35,160 nt of DNA, taken from a virus (taxonomy: Duplodnaviria; Caudoviricetes). Both the position numbers and the translations under genes were made by a program. The notes under the pieces are model-generated. The model was not told where the DNA came from, ran no database searches, and saw only the letters and a list, made by a program, of their open reading frames with translations. The stretch covers positions 1-35,160 of IMG/VR virus record IMGVR_UViG_3300038314_000589; one strand, 5' to 3'. Numbering within the stretch: position 1 is the first letter of the stretch; each line of letters begins with the position of its first letter. This document shows positions 17,087 to 35,159 of the stretch, one piece after another.

Positions 17087-17087
17087 A

Positions 17088-17711: not shown

Positions 17712-18201
17712 TATATATGGAGTTAATCCAACAAATGAACATAATGGTGTGTATTTTAGAAATAATGTATGGTGGTGGAGACCATTATGGGAATATGTTT
17801 GCAAGGAATGCAAAGATTTTTTAACAGAAACTGATATGCAAAAAGGAGGAAATAATTCTGGAAAGAAAATATCAAAGACTAAAGCTTTAAAAATAGGTAA
17901 ACGACTTAAATCTTTAATAGCTACTGGTGAAACAGTAATGCATCAAATAAGTAGAGCTGATTATATAAAGAATCTACCGTTAGAAGATTGTGATATATGT
18001 GATGGTACAGGATATAGAAAAGAACCACCACTTACAGGAGCTGGACATAAAAACTGTAATGCTTGTAATAATGAATTTAAACAAGATGATGTACCAATTG
18101 GTAAAAGAAAGCATCGGGATACAAATTATCCATTCAATATAGCAAATGTAGCAGAATTTGCAGAATTTTGTCTACATAGTGGTGGATTTCAGATCTGGTA
18201 A
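17701..18201 (+). CDS. phage protein (MGFD...YFRNNVWWWRPLW...SGGF.IW type) with DnaJ-like zinc finger insert
   Basis: Recognisable N- and C-terminal motifs; CDICDGTG...CNAC; AAGGAG RBS. Confidence 0.75.
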   Translation: MGFDIYGVNPTNEHNGVYFRNNVWWWRPLWEYVCKECKDFLTETDMQKGGNNSGKKISKTKALKIGKRLKSLIATGETVMHQISRADYIKNLPLEDCDICDGTGYRKEPPLTGAGHKNCNACNNEFKQDDVPIGKRKHRDTNYPFNIANVAEFAEFCLHSGGFQIW

Positions 18202-18212
18202 AAGGAGAGAAT

Positions 18213-18410
18213 ATGAAAGAACGATTTATTATATTTAAACTAATACTTGAAATAAAACGTAGGAACTCAGGTAGTTTCAGTTACTTACAGTTATTCAAGT
18301 TAGCCTTGGCCACATTATCAAGAGAGTTAGACTGGATGAACCAGATAGATGAAAAAGACAAAACAGATGTAAGATTTCATACCTCATTTACAGAAGGAGC
18401 ACAAGCATGA
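18213..18410 (+). CDS. hypothetical protein
   Basis: AAGGAG RBS; ATGA overlap with AAA gene. Confidence 0.7.
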   Translation: MKERFIIFKLILEIKRRNSGSFSYLQLFKLALATLSRELDWMNQIDEKDKTDVRFHTSFTEGAQA

Positions 18411-19456
18411 GTGACACAAGTTTGCCAGGAATGGCCCATATAGAAGAACAATTAAAAAAGATGATTGAAGAAAAACTAGCAGAGAGCCAGAGTGGACAAG
18501 GAGTAAGTCCTGAAACAGTTAATGTTGAACAAGCCTCTGCTAATGAATATAGTATAGAGACTAAAGAAGTAGCAAAAGAAGAAGAAGTTACTCCTTATAG
18601 TGAAGGATACTTTGAAAAAGAAATAAAAATACACAGTATTCCAGAAGACAGCGTTGGGCCTATGTTTAGATTTAATGATGAGAATACATTCCATTTTATG
18701 TTAAGAAATATAGCAAGGAAGGAATGGATGCTTGTTATGGGGCCCACAGGATGCGGTAAATCGTACTTAGCAGAGGTTTTAGCTAAAACTGTAGGTCATA
18801 ACCTCATTAAGATTAATTTTGGCGATACAAGCAATCCTAGCGCTAAATTAATGGGTTATACAGCATATACACCAGAGAAGGGTACTCATTTTGTTAAAAG
18901 TGAGTTTATTAGAGCTTTAGAATCAGAAGAACCAACAATGGTGCTTTTAGATGAGGTGACCAGAGATAGAACGCAAGAACTACAGAATATATTAGTACCA
19001 TTATTAGATGGACAGAAACAGTTAGTTCTTGATGAGACAGATCCACCAGAAACAATAAAGATATCAGATAATGTCTACTTTTATGCAACAGCAAACATAG
19101 GTAGACAGTATATAGGTGCTACTTCTACAATAGATAGAGCCTGGAAGGATAGATTTACTGGTGGAATGTATAAATTAAACTATCTTGACCATGATATGGA
19201 AGTAGGTCTATTGTTAAGTAGATTTGATATATCAAAAGAGGATGCCTCTAAAATATGCAAGTTTGCAAATAAACTAAGATCTCTCTATGAAGCAGATGAA
19301 ATAAGTACTCCAGTTTCAACTAGAATGACTTTAGCAGCAGCAAGTATGGTGTATGATGGCGTTGAGTTGCCATTAGCATTAACACACGTAACAAGTCCAT
19401 TCTTTGATAATGAGGACGATAAAGTGAAAATACATCAGGTAATACAATCATCATGA
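18407..19456 (+). CDS. MoxR/CbbQ/CobS-like AAA+ ATPase
   Basis: Walker A GPTGCGKS, Walker B VLLDE, sensor I ATAN, DRA..DRF arginine finger, sensor II STR. Confidence 0.9.
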   Translation: MSDTSLPGMAHIEEQLKKMIEEKLAESQSGQGVSPETVNVEQASANEYSIETKEVAKEEEVTPYSEGYFEKEIKIHSIPEDSVGPMFRFNDENTFHFMLRNIARKEWMLVMGPTGCGKSYLAEVLAKTVGHNLIKINFGDTSNPSAKLMGYTAYTPEKGTHFVKSEFIRALESEEPTMVLLDEVTRDRTQELQNILVPLLDGQKQLVLDETDPPETIKISDNVYFYATANIGRQYIGATSTIDRAWKDRFTGGMYKLNYLDHDMEVGLLLSRFDISKEDASKICKFANKLRSLYEADEISTPVSTRMTLAAASMVYDGVELPLALTHVTSPFFDNEDDKVKIHQVIQSS

Positions 19457-21687
19457 CACAAACAGATCTATTTGATAAAACAGAAGAACTAGTAGTAGGT
19501 GCATCATATAGCCCGTGGTGGAAAAAATGGTATGAAAAGAAGAATACTGGTAGGAAAACTAAAAATAAGGGTTTATCCAGTATGTGGGATCAATATACTC
19601 CACAGTATGGCAATAGAAAGAAAGCAGAGAAATATTTCAAGATATTTGTTAATACTAATAATGTTCTTAAAATATTAGATCCGTTAATAAAACATAGATT
19701 AAAAGTGGATAGTATTGGAAATTATTCGCATAGGTCTAATAATTCTGGTAGAGTAGCAGGATATGCTAATAGAAATACTAAAGTTATTACATTAACGGAA
19801 GGGATTTTAAGATTGCCAAATGCAGATCCAGCTATAGGAGTAGCAATACATGAAAAATTACATTTAATGCATACTCCTGAGGTATCAGAATGGTCTGATC
19901 AGATTATGGAAAAGATATCTCCGCCCAAACAAACAAGAGCTGAGAGAGCAGAAAGTAGAGATACTGGTGTAATTGAAGAATCAAAAGAGATGCTTATGAA
20001 ATCTATTTGGTGGCAATTGCATAATTTACTTGAAGATGAACGTATTGAGAGTAGATTGCATGAGAATTGTCCTGGATATGTAGCTTTTGTTGTAGCTGCA
20101 AAGGATCATTTAATAGGTAAATCATTTGAAGAAATGAAAGTAATAGATTATGGTGAAACACAAAGTGATAGACTTATCTATGCTGTTATGTTATATATCC
20201 GACATAAAAAATCACTTCAAATAATGATTGAAGCTTGGCCCTGGTTAAAAGATAAGCTTCTTAGAATGAAACATAATCTAGATGAATGTTTATCTGCAGC
20301 TAGAGAAAATAACTTAACTGCATATAAATGGTTTTCTCAAGAAGTCTTTTCTGATCTTATTAAAGAACTTACTAATTTACCTGAAAATGAAGGGGATTTT
20401 GCTAATCTTTCAAATAAAATTGTGGCTGATCCTTCTAGAGGTAGAATTAAAGATATGATCAAAGACTTAATGAAAAGATTAAGTGGAGAAGCTACAGATA
20501 GTCAATATAGAAGTGAAGAAGAAGATGAATTAGCTATTGTTAGATCAATAATTGATAGAAATCGTGTTCAAGATAGTATTGGTAATATCATTGCACCTCC
20601 ATCTGATCCACAAGTATCAACCAGGACAAATAATACACTTAAACAAATAGCAAATGAAGCTGGTTATGATATGACTAATGGTGAATATCATTCAGTACAG
20701 ACTCTTAAAAGAGATATGAATGATCCAAATGGTAAAAAGTATCCACCATTGCCTTCAAGAAAATCTCTACAATCATCAATGGTTAAACTCAAAGATGAGG
20801 ATATGAATTATGTAGATATCAAAAAGGCAATTCAAAAACAAACTCAAGATGGAGTAGGCGGATGGTCTGATGATCCATTAATGGATACTATTGTATTAAG
20901 TCCTACCTCTGAAATAACAGATGAAAATAAGGCTAAATATGTCAATATAGTAGCTCAGAACAGTGGCATTATCGGCAAATTAAAACAAGCTATACAATTC
21001 AATGAGAATATTGCTGATATGGATATCAAAAACCAAATCAAAGGTTATATTGATAGAAAGAAACTACATAAAATTCCTATTGGAGATAATAAAATCTTTA
21101 AAAGGACTATTAAGAAAAATAAAAACAGTCTTTGTGTAGGGATTCTTGCTGATGCATCTGGTAGTATGGCTGGTAGCATGGAAATAGTATCATTAGTATC
21201 TATAATATTCTATGAAGCTTTGATACAATCAAATGATACTAAATTATGTGTAATGTCACATACTGCTGATTTATTAAATCAAGGTGTTACAGTAATAACA
21301 GAGTATTATGTTGAGGGGAATGATAATAGTACAGCAATGGCTAATATGAAATCAACAGGATGTAATAGAGACCATGTAGCTATTAGTTATATGGCAGACA
21401 AGCTTAATGAAGTAGCTTTACCTGAATCTAAAAAGATAATCTTTATTATATGTGATGGTAGACCAGCAGCACGGGGTTATGTTGATGAAGATCATGGACT
21501 ATTATGTGTAAGAGAGACAGTAAATCAGCTAAAACAGGAAGGTATTGCGATTATAGCTTTAGGTGTAGGTGATTATATTAAGGAATATCAATTAGAATCT
21601 ATGTATGATCACAGTATTATGGTAAAGGATATAAGAGAATTACCTAAAATGGTAACTACCATAGCTGAGAAAATAGCTCTGACATAA
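19453..21687 (+). CDS. vWA-domain protein with N-terminal HExxH metallopeptidase-like domain (CobT/NorD-like)
   Basis: AIHEKLH and NLLEDERIE; MIDAS DASGSM and ICDGRP; coupled to the AAA gene. Confidence 0.88.
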   Translation: MTQTDLFDKTEELVVGASYSPWWKKWYEKKNTGRKTKNKGLSSMWDQYTPQYGNRKKAEKYFKIFVNTNNVLKILDPLIKHRLKVDSIGNYSHRSNNSGRVAGYANRNTKVITLTEGILRLPNADPAIGVAIHEKLHLMHTPEVSEWSDQIMEKISPPKQTRAERAESRDTGVIEESKEMLMKSIWWQLHNLLEDERIESRLHENCPGYVAFVVAAKDHLIGKSFEEMKVIDYGETQSDRLIYAVMLYIRHKKSLQIMIEAWPWLKDKLLRMKHNLDECLSAARENNLTAYKWFSQEVFSDLIKELTNLPENEGDFANLSNKIVADPSRGRIKDMIKDLMKRLSGEATDSQYRSEEEDELAIVRSIIDRNRVQDSIGNIIAPPSDPQVSTRTNNTLKQIANEAGYDMTNGEYHSVQTLKRDMNDPNGKKYPPLPSRKSLQSSMVKLKDEDMNYVDIKKAIQKQTQDGVGGWSDDPLMDTIVLSPTSEITDENKAKYVNIVAQNSGIIGKLKQAIQFNENIADMDIKNQIKGYIDRKKLHKIPIGDNKIFKRTIKKNKNSLCVGILADASGSMAGSMEIVSLVSIIFYEALIQSNDTKLCVMSHTADLLNQGVTVITEYYVEGNDNSTAMANMKSTGCNRDHVAISYMADKLNEVALPESKKIIFIICDGRPAARGYVDEDHGLLCVRETVNQLKQEGIAIIALGVGDYIKEYQLESMYDHSIMVKDIRELPKMVTTIAEKIALT

Positions 21688-21692
21688 ATGAA

Positions 21693-21910
21693 GATTACCG
21701 TGATATATACTGATTACCGTGACACATCCTGACACATTTGAATCCGTCACTACTGTCGACAAATGGAAATTAGCGGGAGAAGTTCAAAATTAATTTGCAA
21801 TAGTGCAAATTTCTTTGTATCTTATATTAGTTATTAACTCTCTGTGAGAGTTAATAACTAAGTACTTAACACACACTTTGAATAACTTGGGAGACTACCG
21901 TGATAGATAT
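21693..21910. repeat. direct repeats plus perfect inverted repeats upstream of the replication genes
   Basis: GATTACCGTGA at 21693 and 21712, variant GACTACCGTGA at 21893; TGACACAT x2; AATTTGCA-N4-TGCAAATT (21792-21811); perfect 16-bp inverted repeat 21827-21861. Confidence 0.75.
21795..21823 (+). promoter_or_regulatory. sigma70-like promoter for the replication module
   Basis: TTGCAA-17 nt-TATCTT with AT-rich upstream sequence. Confidence 0.55.
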
Positions 21911-22766
21911 TTCAGTAAGAAAAGTTAGTACAGATTGGTCTGAGATGCCTTCAGGATTAACCTGGTATTTTATAGGCCAGCCTAAAACATGGAAAACAAG
22001 TGCAGTTAGCAAATGGAGTAAAGATGGAGCCGATGGAGTATTGTTAATAGATACTGATTTGGGTGCAGACTTTGCAGATTCGGCTAATGTAGTAACAGCA
22101 ACTTGTTTAAATCCACCTGTTGAACCAGTTAAAGTAGATGGTAAAATGGTAGTGGATAAGAATGGCCAGCAAAAGATGAAAGTAATCCCACCTGAAAAGA
22201 GAGGATATTCTTATAGATCTGGTAAAAAGAAAGGTAAGCCTATGGCTGTCTATTCATTGGCAGAGATTTATACCTGGTTAAGTAAAAACTGGGAAGACTT
22301 ACCATATAATGCAATAGCAATTGATACTGTTGACGAAATTAATAAATGGATTGAGACTATTGTATGTAATGAATTGGGTATACAAGCTATGGGTGATGGA
22401 GAATGGGGAGCTGATTGGGGAAGAGCAAGGAAAAAGAATGTAGATCTTATAGTAAGACTACAAAAACTAGTTAAGAAACATGGTGGTGATCTTATTTTAG
22501 TTTCCCACGCTAAACAAACCCAGATAACAGATGGTAAAACACAGTTAAGTCCTGAATTACCAAGAGGTCTTGCTTATAGTTTAACTGCGAAAGCTGATGT
22601 CATAGGCTATTCAACCATTGATAAAGAAGATGGAAAAGCATATGTTTCATTCAAAAGCTATGATGAACGAGCTGTAGGCTCAAGACTAAAACCACTTTCA
22701 CAAGAAAAGGTACCATTTGAGTACGAATCAGTCAGAAAACAGATAATTACATACAAGGAGAAATAG
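21900..22766 (+). CDS. AAA_24 / Sak4-like RecA-fold ATPase (recombinase / annealase)
   Basis: GQPKTWKTS Walker A, LIDTD.G, IAIDTVD Walker B, LVSH, ADVIGY; followed by SSB-like gene; GTG start. Confidence 0.8.
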   Translation: MIDISVRKVSTDWSEMPSGLTWYFIGQPKTWKTSAVSKWSKDGADGVLLIDTDLGADFADSANVVTATCLNPPVEPVKVDGKMVVDKNGQQKMKVIPPEKRGYSYRSGKKKGKPMAVYSLAEIYTWLSKNWEDLPYNAIAIDTVDEINKWIETIVCNELGIQAMGDGEWGADWGRARKKNVDLIVRLQKLVKKHGGDLILVSHAKQTQITDGKTQLSPELPRGLAYSLTAKADVIGYSTIDKEDGKAYVSFKSYDERAVGSRLKPLSQEKVPFEYESVRKQIITYKEK

Positions 22767-22769
22767 ATA

Positions 22770-23426
22770 ATGCCTTTAACATTAGGTAAAACTCAGTTTG
22801 GTCAAAATAGCAATGATAGTTTCGTTGGTGATGCTATATGGATTGAAGAAGCTGAGATTAAAAAAGTAGAAGATGAGTCTGGAAAAGATGTAGAGATGAA
22901 AGATGGTAACACGTTTAGAAATGATCTTCGTGTTAATGTTGAACTAATTCTTACTGGGCCAGGTTGGGAAGCTAACTTTAGCACTGGTGGGAATTTAAAG
23001 AAAGGTACAGGTGGCAAATCTAATTGGGGTGGAGCATTTAAAGTGCGAGACTTTTTTCAGGCTTGCCTGGAAGATAGCGATCTTGAACCAGCCCTTCCAG
23101 AAATGGAAAAGGGAATTATTCCTAAAAACTTACTAGCAAAAGCCGAAGGAAAGAAGGTCTTTGTTCTTAGATACAAAACTAAACAAGGAAAGACCAAAAC
23201 TTGGAATCAAGTAGCATCTACTGATACTGAAAGAACGGATTTTAAAGAATATTTCCAAAATTCAGTATCTAAAGGTTGGACTAGGATTGATTACGATCCT
23301 CATTATAGTTCAAATTCCGAATCTAAACCTAACAATAAGCAAATGAATGGGCCATGGGATAAGAAACCAGAACAAAGCCAACTTAATGTTAGTGGATTAG
23401 ATAGCGAAGACCTTACAACGCTGTAA
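22770..23426 (+). CDS. putative single-stranded DNA-binding protein
   Basis: Position after Sak4-like gene; beta-strand-rich N-terminus; disordered acidic C-tail (LDSEDLTTL). Confidence 0.55.
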   Translation: MPLTLGKTQFGQNSNDSFVGDAIWIEEAEIKKVEDESGKDVEMKDGNTFRNDLRVNVELILTGPGWEANFSTGGNLKKGTGGKSNWGGAFKVRDFFQACLEDSDLEPALPEMEKGIIPKNLLAKAEGKKVFVLRYKTKQGKTKTWNQVASTDTERTDFKEYFQNSVSKGWTRIDYDPHYSSNSESKPNNKQMNGPWDKKPEQSQLNVSGLDSEDLTTL

Positions 23427-23437
23427 ATAGGCAAAGA

Positions 23438-23506
23438 ATAGATCCTGGGCCAAGTTTAACCTACCTCGGCTTGACTACCACCCACGCTAACTTGGCTCAG
23501 GACTAT
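23438..23506 (+). ncRNA. long-stem hairpin with 32-nt C-rich loop
   Basis: TCCTGGGCCAAGTT/AACTTGGCTCAGGA 14 bp (1 G-U) plus ATAG/CTAT; ends just before the primase RBS. Confidence 0.7.
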
Positions 23507-23522
23507 ATTTAAAGGAGAGAAT

Positions 23523-25316
23523 TTGGAAAATAAATATGTAGAACTGGCTGTTGGGAGTCCAGGCAACAGAGGAATTATAGTTCCCGTTAAAGATATAGGT
23601 ACTGAACTAAGCAAATACAATTCAGTACCAGTGTTTAGAAGCTATTATATGGTTGATGATTCAATTTTAAAACATATACAAGGCGGAAGAAGAACTTTAA
23701 GAGGATATAAAGGCGATTATTACCTAGATAGAATCTTATTTGATATTGATAAAGGATCTGACAGTAATGAAGAATGTTTAAATGCTGCCAGAAACTTTTA
23801 TCATATTTTAACTGAAACTCATAGTATTTCTGAAGACTGTATTCATCCCTGGTTTAGTGGGACTGGATATCATATAGTAATTCCTAATATATTTGGCTTT
23901 GAAGCATCTCATGAACTACCCAGAACAGTAAAATACACAGTAAAACATTATTTTCCTGAAGCAGATGCTATTTATGATGGTGCAAGACTTATTAGATTAG
24001 GATTTACACCAAATGAAAAGACGCTTTCACCTAAACTGTATAAAGTGCCTGTAAGTCCAAGAGAATTATTACATGAAGACCACATATATATCATGAAAAA
24101 GGCGGAAAGTGTTAAAAACCTTGAAATGCCAACACGATTCCCTGAATGCGATGTTCTTTTAGATCCAATTGTACCTAAAAAGAAGGAAGTTAAGCCTCAC
24201 GTTCCTATTCAGAATCCAAGTAAGATAGCTACTTGTATACAAACAATGATTGCTGAAGGCCCGATTAAAGGTAGTAGGCATCATAAAGTATTAAGAGTAG
24301 CATCATATATGAAAAGTAAGGGTTTACCTGAACAATTTGTATCAGAAAGTCAAATTGCCTGGGCTACAAACTTAGAAGCAGAAGAGGTAATAAGGCTTGT
24401 ACATGACGTATATAGTGGCGGAGATACTAATAATGGTTATAAATATGGATGCAACGATTGGCTAATGGATAAATATTGTGATTCTAAATGCATTTATTAT
24501 CCAGCAAAACAAGAAGGTGGAGACATATTAATACCTATATTATCCGTAAAAGAGCTTGAAAAGAGAGCTAGATTCAATATAAAGAAGGATTTAACTGATG
24601 TAACTATCAATTTAAATGATTTTTGGGCTTTAGGTAATGACTATTTCATCTTACCTGGCCAGTTAGTAATGATTGGTGGAGAAACAGGCATGGGAAAGAC
24701 TGCATTTGCTCAAAATATATGTATGTTATCTAAAATAAAGACTTTATATTTAACACTTGAAGTAGAACCTGAACTTATTACACGAAGATTCCAACAAATG
24801 GTGCATAATATGAGTGCTAAAGATGTGCTTAAACACTGGAAAGACGATATGAGTGATAAGTTGCATAAAGGTTTAGAACATTTAGATATAGGTTGGTTTC
24901 CACCTAAGCTGCATGAATTAAAAGAACTCGTAGCATACCATGATCCAGCAGTTTTAGTGCTTGATACAATAGATATGGTAAAAGTTAGCAAGTATATTCA
25001 TAACCAAATTGAAAAAATAGATACTATTATTGAAGAAATGAGATCTATAGCTACTAATCAAGATATAATAGTAATGGGTATCTCTCATATTTCCAAATCG
25101 GAAGGAAGATCTGGAATATTAGATGTACACTCATTTAAAGGTAGCAGCACAATAGAGCAAAAGTCAGATAAAGTTATTATGATAGATGGGGTTGCTAATA
25201 GTCCAGCCAGGATGGTAAAAAGTCATAAGTCCAGAGATGAATCAGGGTTTGTTGCAAATCTTATATTCGATCCAAGGACATTCAAATTCAAAGATGAGGT
25301 AAAAAATGGAAGATAA
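23523..25316 (+). CDS. AEP primase(-polymerase) fused to SF4 (DnaB-like) helicase
   Basis: AEP motifs FDID, FSGTGYH, RLIRL; PriCT-like GSRH helix bundle and Cys cluster; helicase GETGMGKT, LTLE, VLDTID, ISH, KGSSTIEQKSD, KSR; TTG start with AAGGAG. Confidence 0.88.
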   Translation: MENKYVELAVGSPGNRGIIVPVKDIGTELSKYNSVPVFRSYYMVDDSILKHIQGGRRTLRGYKGDYYLDRILFDIDKGSDSNEECLNAARNFYHILTETHSISEDCIHPWFSGTGYHIVIPNIFGFEASHELPRTVKYTVKHYFPEADAIYDGARLIRLGFTPNEKTLSPKLYKVPVSPRELLHEDHIYIMKKAESVKNLEMPTRFPECDVLLDPIVPKKKEVKPHVPIQNPSKIATCIQTMIAEGPIKGSRHHKVLRVASYMKSKGLPEQFVSESQIAWATNLEAEEVIRLVHDVYSGGDTNNGYKYGCNDWLMDKYCDSKCIYYPAKQEGGDILIPILSVKELEKRARFNIKKDLTDVTINLNDFWALGNDYFILPGQLVMIGGETGMGKTAFAQNICMLSKIKTLYLTLEVEPELITRRFQQMVHNMSAKDVLKHWKDDMSDKLHKGLEHLDIGWFPPKLHELKELVAYHDPAVLVLDTIDMVKVSKYIHNQIEKIDTIIEEMRSIATNQDIIVMGISHISKSEGRSGILDVHSFKGSSTIEQKSDKVIMIDGVANSPARMVKSHKSRDESGFVANLIFDPRTFKFKDEVKNGR

Positions 25317-25854
25317 GAAGACAACATATGATCTTGTTGGTAATTATATAGATCTTATGACAGAACATGAATTAGGAACATTAAGTGATGAAGAAGTGAA
25401 ATCATTTGATAAAGATATTGCTGATATTGAATCAGAATTAATTCAAAAGAAGGATAATCTTCATTGGGTAATGACTAATTGTGATGAACAAAAGTCATCT
25501 ATAGAGGGTATGATGGATATGCACGATGAAAAGATCCAGAAATTAAGAAAGAAAAGAAATGCTATTCAGAATACTACCAATAGAATCAAAGAGTTGACTA
25601 TGTTAATAGTGGATACACTAGGTAACAATAATAAAAATGGTAATAAATGTATACTGATCAATGGTGAAAAGTATACCAATATTATGGTTAATGGAAGTCT
25701 TGAGCTAAAAGTAGACGAAGAAGACTTACCTGATGAATTTAAAGAATATCACATGAAAGTGAATAAGTCTAAAGTAAGAAAACATGTTATTAAGAAAGGT
25801 GGTGAAACTAATTATGCCAAAGTCGATAAGAAGAGGTCATTAAGAATAACATGA
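25306..25854 (+). CDS. Gp157-like coiled-coil protein
   Basis: YDL...Y..L; L..K.DN; EKI..L..KR.......RIKE; DEEDLP.EF.......K; SLRI C-terminus. Confidence 0.75.
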   Translation: MEDKKTTYDLVGNYIDLMTEHELGTLSDEEVKSFDKDIADIESELIQKKDNLHWVMTNCDEQKSSIEGMMDMHDEKIQKLRKKRNAIQNTTNRIKELTMLIVDTLGNNNKNGNKCILINGEKYTNIMVNGSLELKVDEEDLPDEFKEYHMKVNKSKVRKHVIKKGGETNYAKVDKKRSLRIT

Positions 25855-26054
25855 TGGATCTAATTTTTAGAATAACCAGGGTTTCAGTAAAAGATACACA
25901 TGGCATTAAAATTACTTTACTAAATTGTATCGGTACCAATATATATTTTAATACAGATAGGGGAGAACATATATCCATAGGATTATTTATAGGTTTTATG
26001 GAAATAGCAGTTCAATTATCAATATGGAGGTTAGGATGGCTGAAAACTTCGTGA
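25851..26054 (+). CDS. small hydrophobic protein
   Basis: ATGA overlap; alternating hydrophobic strands. Confidence 0.6.
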   Translation: MMDLIFRITRVSVKDTHGIKITLLNCIGTNIYFNTDRGEHISIGLFIGFMEIAVQLSIWRLGWLKTS

Positions 26055-26311
26055 CAGATGATAAACAAAAGGATCTTATAATTAAAATCCTATTAATTGC
26101 AAGATTTGCCGCAGAGCAATTCAAATTTATGGGAATAGCTAAAGAGTTGGATATCATCTTAAGAGGTGTTTCATTTCAAAAACAAGAAATGGGAGAAAAT
26201 GAAGATATTAAGAAATTATCAAAAGAAGAGTATAATAAATGGATGCAAAAAGAAATACAAAAGTCGCAAGGAACTTTTGTAGCAGGATGTAAAGGAGATG
26301 ACTGTGATTAA
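26036..26311 (+). CDS. hypothetical protein
   Basis: GGAGG RBS gives ATG 26036. Confidence 0.65.
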   Translation: MAENFVTDDKQKDLIIKILLIARFAAEQFKFMGIAKELDIILRGVSFQKQEMGENEDIKKLSKEEYNKWMQKEIQKSQGTFVAGCKGDDCD

Positions 26312-26696
26312 CAGAAGTCAAATAGGCAAAAGAAACAGACAAAGAGGAGCGGAGCTCCAAAGAGCCATGGTAAATCTTGCGAAGAAATTCAAGCTAGTGG
26401 CTCATAACAGAGACAGGGGAGGGGCACAACACCCTGATGGGGATATAGAAATCAATAACCTATGGTTTGGGTGTAAACGCAAGAAGCGTTTACCTAAGTA
26501 CCTTTTCCCTGAAAAGTCGGAGAAAGGTGTCTTTATAAGATCTGACAGAAAGAAACCTATGATAGTCATTAGTGCAGAACTATTTATGATGCTATACTCT
26601 TCCTGGGAAAAAGACCGTAAAACAAAACTAAGTTATTTAATAAGTAATGGACATCCACCTATAGAAACAGACGGAACAACAAATGAAGAAGAATAA
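26298..26696 (+). CDS. Holliday-junction-resolvase-like PD-(D/E)xK protein
   Basis: NRQRGAELQR, GDI, xCKR, R.DRK.P.IVI pattern of Hjc-like phage resolvases; AAGGAG RBS. Confidence 0.65.
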   Translation: MTVINRSQIGKRNRQRGAELQRAMVNLAKKFKLVAHNRDRGGAQHPDGDIEINNLWFGCKRKKRLPKYLFPEKSEKGVFIRSDRKKPMIVISAELFMMLYSSWEKDRKTKLSYLISNGHPPIETDGTTNEEE

Positions 26697-26976
26697 CATG
26701 AAAAGAATCAGAAGATTGGATAGTTTACCATCTATGTCTCATTTTGAAACAAGTTACGGAGCAAGAGGTATACTACTTAAGAAAGATGACATGCAAAATA
26801 TGGTTTGGTGGTATTATCAACCACCTACAGACGATAAAACAGTACGAGAATACTATTTAAGGAACAATCCCATGGGAATAGCTGGTGGAACACAGATTAT
26901 CAGAATAAGAAAGAGAAAGACAAATATCCCAACAAAATGGCTAAAAAGAAATGACAAGACTGGAAATATTGTTTAA
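26683..26976 (+). CDS. hypothetical basic protein
   Basis: ORF overlapping neighbours in the operon. Confidence 0.6.
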   Translation: MKKNNMKRIRRLDSLPSMSHFETSYGARGILLKKDDMQNMVWWYYQPPTDDKTVREYYLRNNPMGIAGGTQIIRIRKRKTNIPTKWLKRNDKTGNIV

Positions 26977-27578: not shown

Positions 27579-30500
27579 TTAATATATACTTGGATACTTA
27601 GTCTCAGTTGACATAGGATAAGGCGTCCTCGTGGCTGTTATGGGCTTTTCCCGCCTAAAATACTTGGTGGCACCACGTTGGAATTGATGTAAAGGCACTC
27701 CAACCAATCTTTCTGTTGCCATAACAGGATTATAGATCAAACCATGCTCTGGTTTAAACATATCTCTTGCTATCCTACCAAATGGGAACCAAGTCCATAC
27801 ATGATAAGAAGCAAATCTATCCCAATCTTTGGATAACATAGATTTGATAGGTGCTAAGGCATATCTAGCTACAGGTGGAGCAAACATCTGAGCTGGCCCC
27901 ATACCAAAGAAAGCTCGTTCCTTCTCAGGCTCAGAACCAAAGAACCAATCAGCTAAATCCTCAAAATATTGGTAAGGTTGAGGAAGAGTAGCCTCAAACA
28001 TAGAAGCTGGGAAAATAGTAGCAAGAGCATACATAAATAGATCAGCAGTTACCATACTCTGTAATCTCTTATACTCTGGAGTCCCAGGATCATACCCTAC
28101 TATCTTAGCTCGTCTTATTAATTCCTTACGGAATCTAATAGAGTTCCATGACCAAAGCTGAAACCTTGCAAAGATACGACCAAGATTTGTCCTTGCAAAT
28201 GCTGGTCTATTAGCATTATTGTACAAGAACTGAGTACCATACACACCCTGGTTTGCCATTTTAATCAACCAAGGATGTTCAAAGTCCATAACAAATCCAT
28301 TAGCCTCTAATGCATCTCTTGCATTAATATAATGAGCAAGGAAAGCCTGCTTCCTTAATTTTCTTTCCGATACCCGCATAAACCATGCAGCTTTATTAAA
28401 AATTTCTTTAGTTACACCATTTCTTTGAAATATCTCAAACACAGTTAGATCATTAGACTCTGGGTCTTTTCTAATCTGTTGTAAAGCTTCTCGTATAGAC
28501 TTTCTTAATTTAGGATCTTTCCATGCACCAGTAAGCCTAGCCTCTGAAACAATCCATGATTCAACAGCTCCCACACTCTCAGTCCAATCAGACCAATCCT
28601 GACTTGTCTTAAACTTAGGATTAACATAGTTGGCAAGATATTTAATAGAAAGAGAGTTCTTCCATGGAGTAAATCCAGCATTTATAATCGTATTAGTACT
28701 ACCACCATACATATTGTTAGCAAGGGATTTGCTATGTGCAAGTAGCGTAAGCATCTCCCATTTTGCTTCCAAATTAGAGAGATGTGCTAACTGCCTATGT
28801 AATAATCTAGATTTCTCTTTTGCAAGCCCACGATTACCATCAAAATACTTCTTTGCTATCCTACCTACTACTTCCTTTTCAAAAGCCTCATCACTAAACC
28901 AATAGTAAGGAGTAATCTTAACAGGAAGCTTATCTACATCAGTTAAGAATGCTCTAGGAAATGTGCTACCATAACCTAAATTATCTCTGTTATAAAGTTT
29001 CATGAATCTTGCCCACTGCCTAGTATGCTTACCCATCGCTTGAGTATTTTCAAATCTTTTTACCAGCCTGTATGAAATAGCAGACGCTAAGCTATTGTAA
29101 CGTGCTGTAATAATCTGACTAGCATACCTCTCAAGAGCATCCCAGTTTCTTTGCCAGCCTGGTAAAGGGCCATCTTCTCTAGAGCCACGTCTAAGAACAT
29201 GTCCAGGCCTTGAGTGTAATCCAAGTAAGGAAAAATCTCTTTCAGAGATTTCATCAGACATCATAGCTTCTGCATGTGCTTCACCAAGGCCAAGATCATT
29301 TAGCTTTTCTTCTGCCATAATAATCTTATGTCTATACTCCGCCTCTGCTAACTGAGTCTCATCCGCACCCTCTTTAGCTAATCTCTCAAGCCTTTCCTGT
29401 AATACACGTTTAGATACTTTCTTACCCCATCCTCCATGAGGAAAGAACTCACTAAAAGTAACTTGTCCTATACCTCTGAACCCAGGATTCTGAGAAACAG
29501 AACCATCATCAGCTGCAACTGTAATGTTACCCTTACCTGTAATCCTAGTCTCCTCACCACCCTTCCACATCTCTTTAAATTTAATTCTTAATTCAGTGGG
29601 CATCTCCTTTACATCCACTATATCCTCTCGCCAGTCAAGCGTCCTACCACTAGTAGATTTAACACCTTCTTTATTTAATCTTGTAGCAATATCTATAATC
29701 TCATTGTTCTTTATATTCAGCATATCAACACGCATCTCATTTAATATAATATCAAATGAAAGTTCTAGTTGCTGTTCAAGTGGAATAATATATGGCTTAG
29801 CACCTACATCCTGTTCTCTAGCTAACTTTCTTAAAGTCTTACCTATATCTATTTCCTTACCATGCTTAGTCTTATTCCAAACAAATTCTTTCTCAGCAAA
29901 TTCTTTATTACTTACATGTACTTTATAAAAGGACTCAAACCAACCAGTAATCCTATCGTTCATAACTTCACGAAGCTCTTCTGCCCTTATCTTCTGCTGT
30001 TCACCTTCGAGAGTAATAGTATACTCTTTCCCAGCAAACTCTTTATTCCATATCTTCTCAGCCTTTTCCCATTCCTTTTCGTACAGTCTATTTCGGTCAT
30101 TCTCAAACTCATCCTTGCCCCTGTTACGTTCTCTGTACGCTATAATATTATCCATAAATCTTGACTGATCAATATCTTTAATAGTATCTAAGGGTTCTCT
30201 TACAGAAGCAAGGTCTTGTAATCCTTCCTCATATTTTCTAGGCTCACCCTCTGGACTAGTTCTATGCACAATTCTATTGATCTCTACCTGTTTCCATTTA
30301 TCAGCAGTAGTCCAGAACTGATGCATCCTACCAAAGTGACTCATTGGTACAGCAACCTGTTTAAATACAGGGCCAGAAGGAGTGACAACAGGGCCTTCCA
30401 TCCAGAATGGAGACATGTCATAACCTAAATTCCTACGCCCTATGCTCTCAGGCCACATCATAAAATGCCACCACTTAACAGGAGTCCCATCAGGCATTTT

Positions 30501-33500
30501 ACCTGTCTTAATAAAAGAACGGAGAGCATTCTTAGGAGTGAAACCTTTAAATGAATTGATAAAGACTCTTAAATCTTGCTTGGTAGCTATCCTTGGCGAT
30601 GTACCAAAGACTCCAAAATTCATTAAAGTACCCTCGAACATTTCCTGAAAGTTTTCTCTTAATTGAGGATACATCTGAACAATATCCTGCAAGTCACTAT
30701 AAAGCTGTCTCTCTTCTTGACTCATCTTGCTAACATCGACATGTTCTGCATCTTTAATATGATTACGCCAGAAATGATCAGCGTACTCTGCTAATTTATT
30801 AGCTTGGTTAGTATCACTTGTTCTTGGAACAGCTCTATCCAATGCTGGAGACTCTAATGGATCTGACCTTAATATAACCCGTTGCATTTCTGCATCAGAT
30901 AGCTCCCTACCTGTTAATTCATGCAATCCACGATAAGTATCAAGCCACTTCTTTACTGAAGTCCGTGGAAGTACATCTGTACCAAAAGCAAATGCATCTA
31001 ATCCAGAATTATGATAATCACCCTTAAGACTAGAAATCTTATCCTGTTCTCTATTCATATTCTTAGTAATTGTCTCATAATCCTTCTGATAATCTTTAGT
31101 ACCACCCTCCAATAAGTCACGATTTTTTATAAGAGTCTGAATATTTTTCTCGTGCAAAGAAACCTTCTTATGCATATCAGTGACAGAAAAAGGATGCCTT
31201 CTAAGACTAGATAATAAGAAAGCATCATATAATTCTTGTTGAGCTTTGGGAAGACCATCTCTATACTCTCTCATCTTCACTCTTAACTCAGAATTAGTAA
31301 CATATGCAGGCATATTAACTCTCTCATGTAAGGCGACTGCTCTCTTAACATTAATATTATTATAATATGACATTTTATGAGCTTGTGCCTGGTTAAGAAT
31401 ACCTTCAGCGACAACATGGAAACTCTCAATATCCTCACCATACTCAGAGAATGCTTTCCTGTATGCACCAGATACCACCAATACAGATGTCCTATCTGCA
31501 CTATCCTGCGAAACGAAATCTCTAAGTTTAGCTCTACCCTCTGGAGTACTCATCAAAGTCTTAAATTCTTTTTTATCCCAGAACTTTTCCTGTGTTATAA
31601 TCTTCTCACGAAACAACATACTTAATACATCTGGATTCTCATCAAGTATCCTATTGAACTTCCTTCCAAACTTCTGGTATTCTTTATTATTGAAGAAATG
31701 TCTACCCCTTTGATACTCATCACTTACTTGTAATATATTAACAAGCTCTTCAGAGACTACTCTACCCCATACACCAGGAATTTCTACATCTCTATCGGTA
31801 AGATATTTTACTTCAGTAGAAAGTCTATCTGAAATATCATTCATACTCCATGCTCTACCTTCATCCCAATTCCTGCTTGCTATTAGATTATCCATCCTTG
31901 TTAGCCTACCATATATAGTATCATATACACCAGCCATGGCTTTATTGCTGAGTATATCACCATATACTTTGCCCTTACTATCGTAAACAATGGCACCTCT
32001 AAATGCCTTACTTATTAATAGATCTATTAACTGATGTCTGTTAAGCATACCAGCATAATCCCCTGCATCAGCTGCAAAGTTCAAAGCATCTCGTGCATAG
32101 TATCTAAATTCTTCGCCATTATCTTTGGAAGCTTGCCACTTAACATAGAGTTTATCAGCTTTAATAGGTTCTTTCTTTCCCTTTATCCTTCTTGCGTTAA
32201 TGCTAGCCAATGTTTCAGGAGATAATTCTTCAACCCACTCACCACCTTTCTTTGCATTAACAAAAGAAAACAATGAATGGATACGCCTTCTGGCGTTTGC
32301 AGCAACACCCAATAATTTATTACCAGCACGCGACCCCATGGAAACTTCCCATAAAGTTAAAGGATCAAACATACCAGGAACACCCTTCTGCTCTTCTCTT
32401 AATTCTTTAATATTAAAGTCCTCTAGATTAGTTTTTACATCTCTAAGGATACCCTTCTTATCCACCCATTCGTTTCTATTGTTTCTAATAGCTTTCATGA
32501 ACCCCCTGTCCAACCCATGGTAAAAGAATGCAGAGTCACTATCAAGATCAGCACCACCAGAAGCTATCATATCCTTATTATGAATAATCATGCCAGCTCC
32601 TTGTCTTCCAGTAAATCCCTTAAACTTTAAAGATCTCATACCAGAAATAGAATCTGATGGAACACGAATAATGCCAAAAGTAAGTTGTTCTTCCAGGTCT
32701 GCTAGCTTAGCAGGGTCTCTCTTCTCTAAATCTTTTCTTACTCCCTGATAATGCTTCCACGCTGACTCTAAACTCATTCTCTTGCCTTCATATGTGATCT
32801 TAAACTTTTTAAGAGCATCATTGAAATAAAATTCACCTGGCTTCAAGTCCAGTCTCCTCATTAACCATGGGTCAAAAGGGTTTAGAAATGCCTTACCACT
32901 CGAAGGCATAATAGGTCTTATAGCTTTATTGACTAGGTAATTTCTTAAGACAGTATCAGTTAATTTTTTAGTAGGCTTAAACTCTATCATAGATGGGGAT
33001 CTACCGCCTATTTGTAGTATCCTATCAGCAGAGCTATAAAATTCATCCAGCATTTTCTGCTCAGCAACTCTCTGAGCTACATCAAATTCTACTATAGTCT
33101 CACTATCTTGATCTAACAACCCTCTCTTACCAAGTTTTAACATATGATCCCATAGCTTTCTATATAGAGGACTGTCAGAAACAGTAGTTTTACCCTCTTT
33201 GCCACCAGTAACAATAGCCATAATAATATTATGATCTAGCTTATCTACATCTATATTCTCAACAAGCTTCTCTAGCTTAGCTATATCCTTAGAGGTAACA
33301 TTCTTTCCAGCAGCTTCTAACTCAAGAAACTTGTGAGCACGCTTATTATTAACTGGATCACCCCTTACGGACGTAAGTAAGATATCAGTATAGATTCTAT
33401 CAATAATCTTAGGGTCAACCTGCTCTGCAAATAAATTAGTAAGCATCTGCCTGACTGCCATAACCTCTTTCATGGCCCCACCAAATGTAGGATTATCATA

Positions 33501-35159
33501 TACCTGCAAATTGAGAGTAACATCCTCAAGAGGAATCTTATATGTCTCTGGTGTCTTGACATATTTACCTGTAGACTCATTATAATATCTCATCTCATAC
33601 TTGTCTTTACCCCTCCTATGCAACTTCCAGTCATACTTTTCCCTCAACCCTAATTGCTTTACAGCAGTATTATATAATATTCCGTGCACAGGATCAGACA
33701 TGCCTGCCATATGTGCAGACTCTGCCTTTCCAGCCCTGAAATAAGCATACTTACCTAAGATCATTCCACGATCTATTTCAGATGAATGCATAAATCCTTT
33801 TAACATATTACCCTTAACAGGAAGGCCACCGTCCTCTATCATTCTATCAAAGAAATCAGCACGTACCGAAAACACCCCATCTAAATGATGCTCAGCTAAG
33901 AAATTCTCCACAGCCTTGGTAAGCTTACCGCCCTTACCTTGTCGATACCTCTTCATCATTATATTTTTCTTGCCAGCAACATAGTTTCCTACAGAAGAAG
34001 GTGCAGAATTTGCGATGACAATATTCATTGCTGGTCTACCATCTACAGAAACACCAAGATCAGGTATATGATCTTGGTACATATTAATATCAAGACTAGG
34101 CTCTCCAGAATTAAGTATCTGCATACGTTTATTTAGAGATACTGGATCAGAAAGAAACTTATCAGGGTTCTTTGCTATAACACCAATGTCCTTAATCTTT
34201 TCCATTGTAAGCCTAGCGTGGATATTGGATACTACCATATGAGCGTAAAGAGCTTCAGCCTGTTCTGCTGGCATCCCAACCTTCTTCATAAAAGAACTAA
34301 ATACATTTCTATGTTTCTTGTAATCAGAATGTGCCTTTACTTTTGGATTAGCTTTATTAATCCTAGACATATACTGTTCAGCAATGGTTACAAAATTATC
34401 TCCAGGCCTACCCTGTACTAATTCAGCATAGATCTGCTTGTCTTGGTCTTTTACACCAGCAAAGAAATATCTTCCCTTTGCTGCTGCTGCTGCAAATACC
34501 TCTGCAATCTCCCCAGATCCCATATCCATATCAAATATACTTTGCACAACACTTCTATCTCTATCAGGGTTAACAACCTTAGTCTTATTTTCAAATCTTT
34601 CTACAATCCACTTCCATTGTCTCCCAAAAACCTTATCAAGAAATGAATCTGGTGTCATTTTTAATACATTTTTACCAGCACCATCTAAGTCTCCAGACTT
34701 TTCTAATAATAATGGGTCATCACTCCTTACAAAATGACCTTCATTAAGACGAGTATTCTCAGCTGTTCTTACCCAGTAACTCCTTAAGCCTTGATACATC
34801 CTAGTATTACGATCAATAGCAACGCTAAATTCAGAGGATATATCCGCAAGGAAGCTATTCCAACCCTCTTTACCCCCTGTTGAAAGATTGCTTTTAGCAA
34901 TCTCTGATACTCTTTCTTTAACAAGTCCTCTATTAGGTATATTGGGATCAGTGCCAGCAACAATCTGCTCCACTATCATATCTAAAGGCCGAGCCAAATG
35001 TAGAGTGGAATCATGTTCATTAATCACCTCTGATGTTTGAACGGACTCACTCTTTTCCGAGGTAGGGAGTTCAAGCATGGGTTCTTTAGGTATACTTGGC
35101 TCGACTACAGGCTTGCCTATTAATTCAAATTGAAATTGTTTATAGCCATCTTTTTTAAG
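27579..35159 (-). CDS. giant virion protein containing a single-chain two-barrel RNA polymerase (5'-truncated)
   Basis: Frame is open to the window edge (27 more codons upstream of ATG 35078). Ordered motifs LDG, LKG, YNTAVK, RQMLTNL, LKPGE, IRVP, GGADLDSD (32535-32549), LLGVAAN, AAD. Confidence 0.8.
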   Translation of the reverse strand, partial: LKKDGYKQFQFELIGKPVVEPSIPKEPMLELPTSEKSESVQTSEVINEHDSTLHLARPLDMIVEQIVAGTDPNIPNRGLVKERVSEIAKSNLSTGGKEGWNSFLADISSEFSVAIDRNTRMYQGLRSYWVRTAENTRLNEGHFVRSDDPLLLEKSGDLDGAGKNVLKMTPDSFLDKVFGRQWKWIVERFENKTKVVNPDRDRSVVQSIFDMDMGSGEIAEVFAAAAAKGRYFFAGVKDQDKQIYAELVQGRPGDNFVTIAEQYMSRINKANPKVKAHSDYKKHRNVFSSFMKKVGMPAEQAEALYAHMVVSNIHARLTMEKIKDIGVIAKNPDKFLSDPVSLNKRMQILNSGEPSLDINMYQDHIPDLGVSVDGRPAMNIVIANSAPSSVGNYVAGKKNIMMKRYRQGKGGKLTKAVENFLAEHHLDGVFSVRADFFDRMIEDGGLPVKGNMLKGFMHSSEIDRGMILGKYAYFRAGKAESAHMAGMSDPVHGILYNTAVKQLGLREKYDWKLHRRGKDKYEMRYYNESTGKYVKTPETYKIPLEDVTLNLQVYDNPTFGGAMKEVMAVRQMLTNLFAEQVDPKIIDRIYTDILLTSVRGDPVNNKRAHKFLELEAAGKNVTSKDIAKLEKLVENIDVDKLDHNIIMAIVTGGKEGKTTVSDSPLYRKLWDHMLKLGKRGLLDQDSETIVEFDVAQRVAEQKMLDEFYSSADRILQIGGRSPSMIEFKPTKKLTDTVLRNYLVNKAIRPIMPSSGKAFLNPFDPWLMRRLDLKPGEFYFNDALKKFKITYEGKRMSLESAWKHYQGVRKDLEKRDPAKLADLEEQLTFGIIRVPSDSISGMRSLKFKGFTGRQGAGMIIHNKDMIASGGADLDSDSAFFYHGLDRGFMKAIRNNRNEWVDKKGILRDVKTNLEDFNIKELREEQKGVPGMFDPLTLWEVSMGSRAGNKLLGVAANARRRIHSLFSFVNAKKGGEWVEELSPETLASINARRIKGKKEPIKADKLYVKWQASKDNGEEFRYYARDALNFAADAGDYAGMLNRHQLIDLLISKAFRGAIVYDSKGKVYGDILSNKAMAGVYDTIYGRLTRMDNLIASRNWDEGRAWSMNDISDRLSTEVKYLTDRDVEIPGVWGRVVSEELVNILQVSDEYQRGRHFFNNKEYQKFGRKFNRILDENPDVLSMLFREKIITQEKFWDKKEFKTLMSTPEGRAKLRDFVSQDSADRTSVLVVSGAYRKAFSEYGEDIESFHVVAEGILNQAQAHKMSYYNNINVKRAVALHERVNMPAYVTNSELRVKMREYRDGLPKAQQELYDAFLLSSLRRHPFSVTDMHKKVSLHEKNIQTLIKNRDLLEGGTKDYQKDYETITKNMNREQDKISSLKGDYHNSGLDAFAFGTDVLPRTSVKKWLDTYRGLHELTGRELSDAEMQRVILRSDPLESPALDRAVPRTSDTNQANKLAEYADHFWRNHIKDAEHVDVSKMSQEERQLYSDLQDIVQMYPQLRENFQEMFEGTLMNFGVFGTSPRIATKQDLRVFINSFKGFTPKNALRSFIKTGKMPDGTPVKWWHFMMWPESIGRRNLGYDMSPFWMEGPVVTPSGPVFKQVAVPMSHFGRMHQFWTTADKWKQVEINRIVHRTSPEGEPRKYEEGLQDLASVREPLDTIKDIDQSRFMDNIIAYRERNRGKDEFENDRNRLYEKEWEKAEKIWNKEFAGKEYTITLEGEQQKIRAEELREVMNDRITGWFESFYKVHVSNKEFAEKEFVWNKTKHGKEIDIGKTLRKLAREQDVGAKPYIIPLEQQLELSFDIILNEMRVDMLNIKNNEIIDIATRLNKEGVKSTSGRTLDWREDIVDVKEMPTELRIKFKEMWKGGEETRITGKGNITVAADDGSVSQNPGFRGIGQVTFSEFFPHGGWGKKVSKRVLQERLERLAKEGADETQLAEAEYRHKIIMAEEKLNDLGLGEAHAEAMMSDEISERDFSLLGLHSRPGHVLRRGSREDGPLPGWQRNWDALERYASQIITARYNSLASAISYRLVKRFENTQAMGKHTRQWARFMKLYNRDNLGYGSTFPRAFLTDVDKLPVKITPYYWFSDEAFEKEVVGRIAKKYFDGNRGLAKEKSRLLHRQLAHLSNLEAKWEMLTLLAHSKSLANNMYGGSTNTIINAGFTPWKNSLSIKYLANYVNPKFKTSQDWSDWTESVGAVESWIVSEARLTGAWKDPKLRKSIREALQQIRKDPESNDLTVFEIFQRNGVTKEIFNKAAWFMRVSERKLRKQAFLAHYINARDALEANGFVMDFEHPWLIKMANQGVYGTQFLYNNANRPAFARTNLGRIFARFQLWSWNSIRFRKELIRRAKIVGYDPGTPEYKRLQSMVTADLFMYALATIFPASMFEATLPQPYQYFEDLADWFFGSEPEKERAFFGMGPAQMFAPPVARYALAPIKSMLSKDWDRFASYHVWTWFPFGRIARDMFKPEHGLIYNPVMATERLVGVPLHQFQRGATKYFRREKPITATRTPYPMSTETKYPSIY

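Follow-up and report, generated by a model that had tools for sequence, protein, structure and literature searches.

A giant cysteine-free protein with a predicted two-barrel RNA polymerase core in the virion operon of an uncultured marine phage

The giant open reading frame and its predicted polymerase core

The virus record IMGVR_UViG_3300038314_000589 was analysed over its whole length of 35,160 nucleotides (nt), here called the window. One end of it is occupied by a giant minus-strand open reading frame (ORF), convergent with a plus-strand block of putative early genes and co-oriented with the packaging and virion genes (Table 1). By analogy with known systems, we read its product as a virion-delivered, DNA-dependent RNA polymerase (RNAP) with two double-psi barrels, the large component of an ejection cassette of three genes, transcribing the early genes; we put the probability of this reading at about 0.8.

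The 5′ part of the giant gene lies beyond the end of the record, and no stop codon interrupts the frame before the edge of the window. The ORF that starts at ATG 35078 spans 27579-35078, but this ATG is internal. The preliminary description of the locus numbered the residues from it; the motif positions so obtained were correct and are used here, but with the frame open upstream ATG 35078 does not stand as the true start. Near-identical relatives reach further. Residues 498-3011 of P0001 (3011 residues) aligned to the window protein with 94% identity, while residues 735-3260 of P0204 (3260 residues) and 1625-4150 of P0208 (4150 residues) aligned to all 2526 window residues with 97.4% and 99.7% identity, respectively. 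Judged from these relatives, the whole protein has 3011-4150 residues. At two other loci (L023:6842-16018 and L057:8078-12772), the giant gene appeared as two ORFs; it was whole in the near-identical L032 and L041, and the splits are probably assembly frameshifts.

Table 1. Features of the locus (nucleotide positions in the window; residues counted from ATG 35078)
Feature	Residues	Position	Strand	Basis or remark
Giant ORF, 5′ end open		27579..35159	-	2526 residues within the window, no cysteine
End of variable inserted domain		35103..35159	-	Common to P0204 and P0208; absent from P0001; weak ASCH hint only (E 0.95)
Predicted two-barrel RNAP core	200-1130	31689..34481	-	AlphaFold2; aligned to QDE-1 573-1186 and gp66 661-1813
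N-K-R-x-Q helix before first barrel	316-320	34119..34133	-	K317, R318 in 63/63; Q320 in 58/63
First double-psi barrel (beta-subunit type)	342-530	33489..34055	-	Model residues 140-331 match stand-alone barrels, Z 5.0-5.5
Helical connector between barrels	531-723	32910..33488	-	~190 residues; model secondary structure
Second double-psi barrel (beta'-type)	724-868	32475..32909	-	Model residues 525-669
RxP "Pro-gate" motif, R805-V-P807	805-807	32658..32666	-	R and P in 63/63; aligned by hhalign to gp66 RIP
Catalytic loop, D844-L-D846-S-D848	844-848	32535..32549	-	Asp in 189/189; aligned by hhalign to gp66 DFDID
Long helix, predicted bridge helix with LLGVAAN	906-942	32253..32363	-	Model helix 707-743, 37 residues
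Helix ending at D1004, predicted trigger-loop base (FAAD)	985-1003	32067..32126	-	Model; D1004 in 60/63
Middle region	1131-1819	29622..31688	-	Poorly conserved; gap between BLAST blocks in most homologues
All-helical conserved C-terminal region	1820-2499	27582..29621	-	nt 27984-28412 match NF032893 (PLxRFG), E 1.2e-7
Convergent block, putative early/replication operon		12484..26976	+	AAA ATPase and vWA pair, Sak4-like, primase-helicase, Gam/gp157-like, RusA-like
Packaging and virion block, co-oriented with giant gene		264..11866	-	Large terminase, P22-like portal, SU10-type major capsid protein, adaptor, tail-fibre-like genes

All nine motifs on which a hidden polymerase had been proposed were found in the claimed order and place: LDG (residues 399-401, nt 33884-33876), LKG (426-428), ILYNTAVK (467-474), VRQMLTNL (542-549), LKPGEF (745-750), IIRVP (803-807), GGADLDSD (841-848, nt 32558-32535), LLGVAAN (922-928) and FAAD (1001-1004). 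The motif alone is weak evidence, because the loose pattern [RK]xP x20-100 DxDxD arose in 191 of 1000 shuffles of the window protein; a stricter pattern, composed after the sequence was known, arose in 1 of 1000. What raises the finding above chance is a fold match together with the invariance of nine residues (D400, K427, K443, K474, R805, P807, D844, D846 and D848) in 63/63 sequences of alignment A2. This alignment comprised the window and 62 of the 80 stretches kept from the 214 related ones in an IMG/VR scan, with redundant, short or N-containing stretches dropped, and its homologues were 20-27% identical to the window protein. K317, R318 and G401 were also invariant, and Q320 and D1004 nearly so.

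The A2 loci were found partly via the loop pattern, which favours conservation, and the count of motifs across the 80 viral loci was not used as evidence, the loop pattern having been among the search patterns. A search with residues 380-1050 was free of that bias. Of the 7984 candidates scored, it picked out 54 proteins, almost all 2400-4100 residues long and none functionally named; DxDxD was present in all 54. Their union with the profile-search set described below gave 198 distinct proteins, of which nine end before the loop; the three aspartates, whose conservation among homologues had been in question, were kept in 189/189 that reach the site.

In QDE-1, a polymerase of RNA interference (RNAi), the active-site residues follow in the order R671/Q673, D709, Q736, K743, K767, R962-P964, D1007/9/11, N1087 and D1116, and the QDE-1 counterparts of the invariant active-site residues are essential by mutagenesis (PMC9508822). 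Judged from order and spacing, the series would map to R318/Q320, D400, K427, K443, K474, R805-P807, D844/6/8, N928 and D1004. The N-K-R-x-Q helix is thus placed, by order, as the likely counterpart of R671/Q673, and in the model D1004 is likely that of D1116; the model also suggests the position of the bridge helix relative to N1087/R1091. The RxP and DxDxD motifs of the window protein fit the filter of PMC10770324 Supplementary Data 4.

An AlphaFold2 model of residues 200-1150, built on A2, reached a predicted local distance difference test score (pLDDT) of 83.5 and a predicted template modelling score (pTM) of 0.85. Both double-psi barrels, the features on which the polymerase claim was to stand or fall, were found in the one chain. 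The first carries the invariant D400, K427, K443 and K474. Model residues 525-669, in the second, matched VAT-N, designed double-psi beta-barrels and the largest subunits of cellular RNAPs; the stand-alone barrel matches also included molybdoenzyme domains, which are double-psi barrels. The stand-alone barrel matches had Z 5-7 overall and were weak taken singly. The connector between the barrels has ~140 residues in QDE-1 and in gp66, the virion RNAP (vRNAP) of phi14:2, a crAss-like phage of Cellulophaga (10.1101/2020.03.07.982082). The predicted bridge helix and trigger-loop helix lie within the stretch that aligns with QDE-1 and gp66.

Foldseek placed gp66 first (E 3.3e-7), the QDE-1 entries next (9e-6) and then beta' subunits, and all matches listed were RNAPs. 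A VIA search of 48,161 chains gave QDE-1 at Z 15.4 (root-mean-square deviation 5.9, 524 residues aligned), gp66 at Z 12.9 (4.7, 594 aligned), RDR2 at Z 12.7, P23-45 gp96 at Z 11.5, gp62 at Z 11.4 and PolD at Z 5.9; in a second structure comparison, QDE-1 scored Z 15.9 (506 aligned) and gp66 Z 12.1 (675 aligned). With the model and both structure searches matching gp66, QDE-1, RDR2 and the P23-45 polymerases, the proposal of a single-chain two-barrel polymerase is supported. Its proposed extent, 32040..33900, was too narrow; the core as modelled covers about nt 34481 to 31690.

The best structural matches in BFVD were unnamed proteins (E 2.5e-32 and 8e-25). We also observed there a tier of unnamed viral and crAss-phage proteins (E 1e-7 to 1e-14, ~11% identity) between the window family and crAss gp66, which, at the level of models, points to further hidden two-barrel RNAP families.

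Family extent, catalytic loop and N-terminal modules

The A2 profile matched 573 clusters at 50% identity, 362 of them at E<=1e-30, and the profile-search proteins analysed were the 150 listed of these clusters. The lineage had been called highly diverged; with 573 clusters it is no lone oddity. For the core, no match was found in Pfam (0 families at E<=0.01, including PF05183), PHROG, NCBIfam or INPHARED. A tblastn search with the core and the C-terminus against 50,697 phage records gave no match, so that no cultured member turned up among them, and hmmsearch with the family profile did not match gp66. We found no description of the family in the open literature searched, although the 23 RNAP family alignments of PMC10770324 (Supplementary Data 3), bioRxiv supplements and the crAss papers by Yutin could include members; ten other supplements of PMC10770324 contained no entry labelled prokaryotic double-stranded DNA or uncultured. 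The polymerase class itself is known; family databases miss the family.

Among the 189 homologues, position four in the catalytic loop was Gly in 125, Ile in 48, Ser in nine and Ala in seven. A FastTree tree was built from 176 cores with the loop columns removed; P0001, 10 short-flank proteins and three pattern-missed ones were left out. It called for no fewer than 24 changes at this position, compared with 56 after shuffling, a rough count given the long branches flagged in the tree, and well-supported branches alone forced 15 for Gly. The sister of the window in the tree was P0002 (DLDID), inside a set of 50 that is rich in Ile; DKDSD occurred in a separate 8-member clade. Known RNAP loops vary likewise, with DQDPD, DNDKD and DVDID (PMC10770324 Supplementary Data 4). 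Because the position varies repeatedly in the family and also in known RNAPs, Ser is ordinary here; the weight placed on it as a further variant was unsupported, and DLDSD was rejected as a distinctive variant. In gp66, Ile at the fourth position is tied to an inactive loop conformation, non-Gly residues distorting the loop in the crystal, and gp66 with Ile in its loop is an active enzyme (10.1101/2020.03.07.982082). The lability of the position is of interest because of this link between Ile and the inactive loop.

Ahead of the polymerase, the family is modular. The insert into which the window edge falls marks, by sequence comparison, a point of exchange that lies just ahead of the polymerase. 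Within the 90% cluster of the window, P0204 and P0209 carry different inserts at about residue 504 of P0001. P0208 has no match to the first 503 residues of P0001 and bears instead ~1520 unrelated cysteine-free residues, which include a phrog_2072/phrog_335 domain; it is less likely a chimera because a second record, P0211, matches the same N-terminus at 96%. The near-identical polymerase chains (92-99.7%; P0001, P0204, P0208, P0209 and P0211) thus differ in inserts at one site, and the sequences suggest a delivery or cargo module exchanged within one phage population. Accessory Pfam domains (cpYpsA, 2OG-Fe(II), NADAR, SF1 helicase, DUF1848, DUF7831 and HhH) were found in 10 of 27 homologues, chosen mostly by length.

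Genome context and signs of virion delivery

The neighbour upstream of the giant gene was co-oriented with it in 70/70 loci. Downstream genes lay mostly on the opposite strand in 65/66 loci, with the primase-helicase among them in 50/66, and gene order was preserved in the five relative contigs examined whole. In L107 (92-96% nucleotide identity to the window), a tail-fibre-like gene is followed by cysteine-free ORFs of 294 and 463 residues and then by the giant gene (3011 residues).

The window protein has no cysteine in 2526 residues, where 22.7 would be expected from the other window ORFs and 11.9 from the structural ORFs. Cysteine was absent from 155/164 full-length homologues and, in the upstream gene clusters, from 38/38 members of c4 and 26/28 of c6; in the remaining nine homologues the cysteines were few and spread over deciles 2-9. 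T7 gp15 and gp16 also lack cysteine. In Schitoviridae (N4-like phages), cysteine is suppressed throughout the three-gene ejection operon, and the vRNAP has been proposed as an ejection motor (PMC11445570). Many relatives (L009, L031, L036, L043, L061, L070 and others) have an extra co-oriented gene of 300-760 residues behind the polymerase gene; the window has no such gene. One cluster of these genes, c22, was cysteine-free in 7/7, and its product is possibly a fourth ejected protein.

NF032893 was matched by the C-terminal region of 57/59 members at E<=0.01 (30.6-33 bits, E 1e-7 to 2e-8). The match is below the cut-off, but its consistency in 57/59 makes the C-terminus a distant PLxRFG relative. 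This region was 29-40% conserved, compared with 20-27% for the core. Its model was poor (pLDDT 63, pTM 0.44), Foldseek and VIA returning only helical-hairpin noise, and is no evidence of a new fold. The nearest annotated neighbours in the ESM Atlas were LPD39 and LPD38 clusters, which is a lead. PLxRFG marks 495-kDa podophage proteins (PMC9505181), and phi24B gp47 (LPD38), detected in virions, is a proposed ejection protein (10.64898/2026.04.10.717836). Profiles of the N-terminus, the C-terminus and the upstream genes gave weak, composition-driven matches only against T7 gp14-16, phi14:2 gp65-75, CRP-810 and Kuura proteins. The earlier claim that the polymerase is packaged in the virion is consistent with the gene position, the absence of cysteine and the PLxRFG-like C-terminus, although these signs are indirect.

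The source is an uncultured ~50-kb marine phage, not a crassvirus. Contigs of its relatives measured 46.9-56.4 kb at 95-100% completeness; the SU10-type capsid protein was present in 7/7 relatives tested (43-97% identity) and was ~25% identical to that of the six nearest isolates, none crAss-like. Twenty sequencing runs from 13 studies contained at least half of the sampled words, and the 11 studies that remain without two possible source studies bore marine, seawater or hydrothermal vent labels, one being coded. No RNA data set was among those listed, which does not bear on expression either way. No family A DNA polymerase (PolA) was found in four complete ~50-kb relatives (G002-G005) or among the selected ORFs scanned against PHROGs, and these relatives may rely on the host replicase. 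A Shine-Dalgarno-like motif preceded 12/24 ATG genes in the window and 85/150 in four relatives (3 and 12 in controls); in phi14:2 it preceded 0/22. Flavobacteriia/Bacteroidia are not known to use such motifs. With the signal present here, a host from these groups fits poorly, which hints at one outside the Bacteroidota classes that lack the motif. Two GTDB matches fell in a Bacteroidota bin and a Rhodothermales bin, binned phage contigs being no proof of host.

Repeats in the window and in the early regions of four relatives belonged to ribosome-binding-site-like and chance families only, and a count of sigma-70-like sites gave 80, compared with 71.6 +/- 9.8 for shuffled sequence. No second protein with RNAP-like motifs was seen in the genomes of five relatives.

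Further elements were seen in the window and its relatives. A 31-nt inverted repeat (12406-12538; 81% complementary, arms 71 nt apart) at the divergence point of terminase and first plus-strand gene is a candidate for a promoter hairpin, an origin or a signal of the genome end. Between the two converging gene blocks, within a gap of 600 nt, an inverted repeat (27220-27325) and a short G+C-rich hairpin (27530-27545) are possible terminators. A CbbQ/NirQ/CobS-like AAA ATPase gene followed by a vWA gene (18407-21687, plus strand), a MoxR-vWA chaperone pair, was not seen in the contigs of the five relatives used for comparison. In one relative (G005; L097:2370-3281), the gene next after the giant one encodes an integrase (phrog_1, E 7e-32), and some family members may be temperate.

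Interpretation and comparison with known systems

By analogy to phi14:2 gp66 and the N4/DEV vRNAPs, the polymerase would be made late and packaged in the capsid in an unfolded or inactive state. An outer-membrane pore and a periplasmic tunnel would be formed by the two proteins encoded upstream, and the polymerase chain would pass together with the DNA into the cell, where its N- or C-terminal helical regions would anchor it at the inner membrane. There it would transcribe the plus-strand block, the convergent early operon, from single-stranded or melted DNA, and transcription may help pull the genome into the cell. D844/D846/D848 and D400 are predicted to hold two Mg2+ and R805-P807 to read the ribose 2'-OH, while SLOG, 2OG-Fe(II), NADAR, helicase and macro-like domains, present as inserts in front of the polymerase, would serve as day-one cargo.

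Several points weigh against this reading. Activity, virion presence and transcription are predictions from sequence and model. The fold match is that of a predicted structure, at 9-12% identity and with Foldseek TM-scores of just 0.28-0.36; phmmer and profile searches of PDB sequences and Pfam gave nothing for the core, and hhalign to gp66 reached just E 0.05 over 69 columns (RVP on RIP, DLDSD on DFDID). The equivalence of the first-barrel residues to QDE-1 is one of order and spacing. On the side of delivery, a scaffold-like ORF, a 552-residue ORF and a tail-fibre ORF also lack cysteine; because some non-ejected virion proteins here share the trait, it is suggestive only. The PLxRFG scores (31-33 bits) are far under the NF032893 cut-off of 100. 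Hydrophobic segments were weak (best 19-residue mean 1.5, in P0001) and marginal in 5/6 proteins scanned, and the matches of the c4 profile to T7 gp15 and CRP-810 internal virion protein D were weak and composition-driven. A search for a promoter motif common to the plus-strand block of the window and the early regions of four relatives gave none.

A virion-delivered polymerase might have another job, either RNA-dependent synthesis, as in the RNAi RNA-dependent RNA polymerases (RdRPs), or the making of short RNA primers in replication, with the host RNAP serving the early genes. The structural Z-scores are indeed nearer to QDE-1/RDR2 (15-16) than to gp66 (12-13), the nearest named ESM Atlas cluster is the RdRP family PF05183, at a low 0.79, and PolA is missing from 4/4 complete relatives. 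Nevertheless, this is a double-stranded DNA phage with its own primase-helicase, and gp66 ranks first in Foldseek and aligns over more residues (594-675 versus 506-532). QDE-1 itself prefers single-stranded DNA (10.1101/2020.03.07.982082), and K427 would be Lys as in the DNA-dependent Pol II, where QDE-1 has Gln, if the mapping is right (PMC9508822). We regard such another job as quite unlikely.

It is very unlikely that the gene sits in the structural operon by chance and encodes a polymerase that serves middle or late genes and is no part of the virion, in the manner of P23-45 gp64 or of YonO from SPbeta, a stand-alone, non-virion single-subunit RNAP. Late transcription does need some enzyme, given that no second protein with RNAP-like motifs was seen in five relatives, and the P23-45/P74 non-virion RNAPs are among the structural matches (Z 11.4-12.1). 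The solved non-virion enzymes have ~600 residues, however, whereas this gene lies inside the late operon and its product is cysteine-free, has 3000-4000 residues and ends in a PLxRFG/LPD-like region.

The fold could also be catalytically dead and retained in the ejection channel to bind DNA, with Ser847 as a sign of decay. Such decay would accord with the distortion of the gp66 crystal loop by non-Gly residues (10.1101/2020.03.07.982082) and with the better conservation of the C-terminal region relative to the core. It is hard to reconcile with metal ligands and nucleotide-contacting residues that are all invariant across the family, with the activity of gp66 bearing Ile at that position, and with the recurrence of DxDSD in the separate 8-member clade, and we gave it scant credence. 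Finally, a PolD-like two-barrel DNA polymerase in place of the missing replicative one, which the absence of PolA from 4/4 complete relatives and a PolD among the structural matches (Z 5.9) would allow, has a negligible chance, as PolD scores far under the RNAPs, the RxP arginine reading the 2'-OH is invariant and the gene lies in the virion operon, not in the replication block.

A bolder extension of the virion-delivered reading seems doubtful to us. The family would then be the closest phage relatives of the eukaryotic RNAi polymerases, nearer than gp66 and marking the source lineage of eukaryotic RdRPs; the enzyme, a constant chassis, would be built into an ejectosome of the T7 kind and pump DNA by means of transcription, its whole N-terminal delivery-and-cargo module would be swapped between near-identical phages, and the Gly/Ile/Ser/Ala flips would form a tunable self-inhibition switch.

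Read as a virion-delivered polymerase, the protein would place the two-barrel enzyme type in compact phages outside Crassvirales, in a three-gene cassette with the layout seen in N4-like phages, whose own polymerase has an unrelated fold. The sister proteins with DLDGD, DLDID and DLDSD offer a natural series for testing the self-inhibition proposal on the non-Gly loop of gp66. The family adds candidates for the proposed phage origin of the eukaryotic RNAi polymerases and is a predicted source of small single-chain polymerases.

Among known systems, phi14:2 gp66 (PDB 6VR4) has the same single chain with both barrels and the connector, and is the top Foldseek match. Its RxP and DxDxD motifs are in register with the window protein by hhalign, its gene is likewise a large one in a leftward late block convergent with replication genes, and it is nearly cysteine-free too (2 in 2180 residues). 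It differs from the window family in sequence, with ~10% identity and no significant profile match, and in the loop, which is DLD[G/I/S/A]D here and DFD[I/V]D in the gp66 group (10.1101/2020.03.07.982082). The window family has one chain of 2600-4600 residues with a PLxRFG-like C-terminus, compared to gp67/gp66/gp65 in phi14:2; N- and C-terminal profiles did not match gp65 or gp67, single sequences that make an insensitive target. The genomes differ as well: 47-56 kb with an SU10-type capsid protein, Shine-Dalgarno use and no PolA, versus ~100 kb in phi14:2. Crassviruses are defined by genomes of ~97-192 kb, a crAss-type capsid module and a family A or B DNA polymerase (PMC10136315). The relatives here have 46.9-56.4 kb and an SU10_MCP with six non-crAss phage matches, and PolA was found in 0/4, PolB not having been searched for as a family. 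An orthologue of gp66 from Crassvirales was ruled out by loop, sequence and genome type.

QDE-1 (2J7N, 7Y7P-T) and RDR2 (7W84, 7ROZ) gave the highest structural Z-scores (15-16 and 13-15, respectively) and have their elements arranged alike: a D1 auxiliary helix, two barrels, the Pro-gate, a bridge helix and the trigger-loop Asp. A further likeness is that DLDGD is the loop found most often in the window family. Unlike these enzymes, the window protein has no PF05183 match, stands in a virion operon and carries large N- and C-terminal extensions.

In layout, there is a likeness to N4 gp50, DEV gp71 (cassette gp73-72-71) and T7 gp14-15-16, where a giant cysteine-free protein likewise comes last in a cassette behind two smaller cysteine-free genes. 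The N4/DEV vRNAPs share the succession of N-terminal region, central polymerase and helical C-terminal region, with fused cargo domains. The N4 vRNAP is a T7-type right-hand polymerase (PMC13434306), as opposed to the two-barrel fold predicted here. The terminal regions had no sequence match to T7 gp16.

The polymerases of Thermus phage P23-45, gp96 (a vRNAP fused to a tape measure protein) and gp64 (8H2M, 8F72), are two-barrel phage RNAPs with Z 10-12, and gp96 also resides in a giant virion protein. It lies, however, in the tape measure protein of a long tail and lacks the clamp region, aligning only to model residue ~850, whereas for the window model the alignment with QDE-1 and gp66 extends to ~927, and its context is that of a short tail with a P22-like portal. 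The PLxRFG/LPD38/LPD39 polyvalent proteins are likewise giant podophage proteins with plug-in enzyme domains; in the passages of PMC5512222 considered here, the sole polymerase fused in them is an N4-type RNAP.

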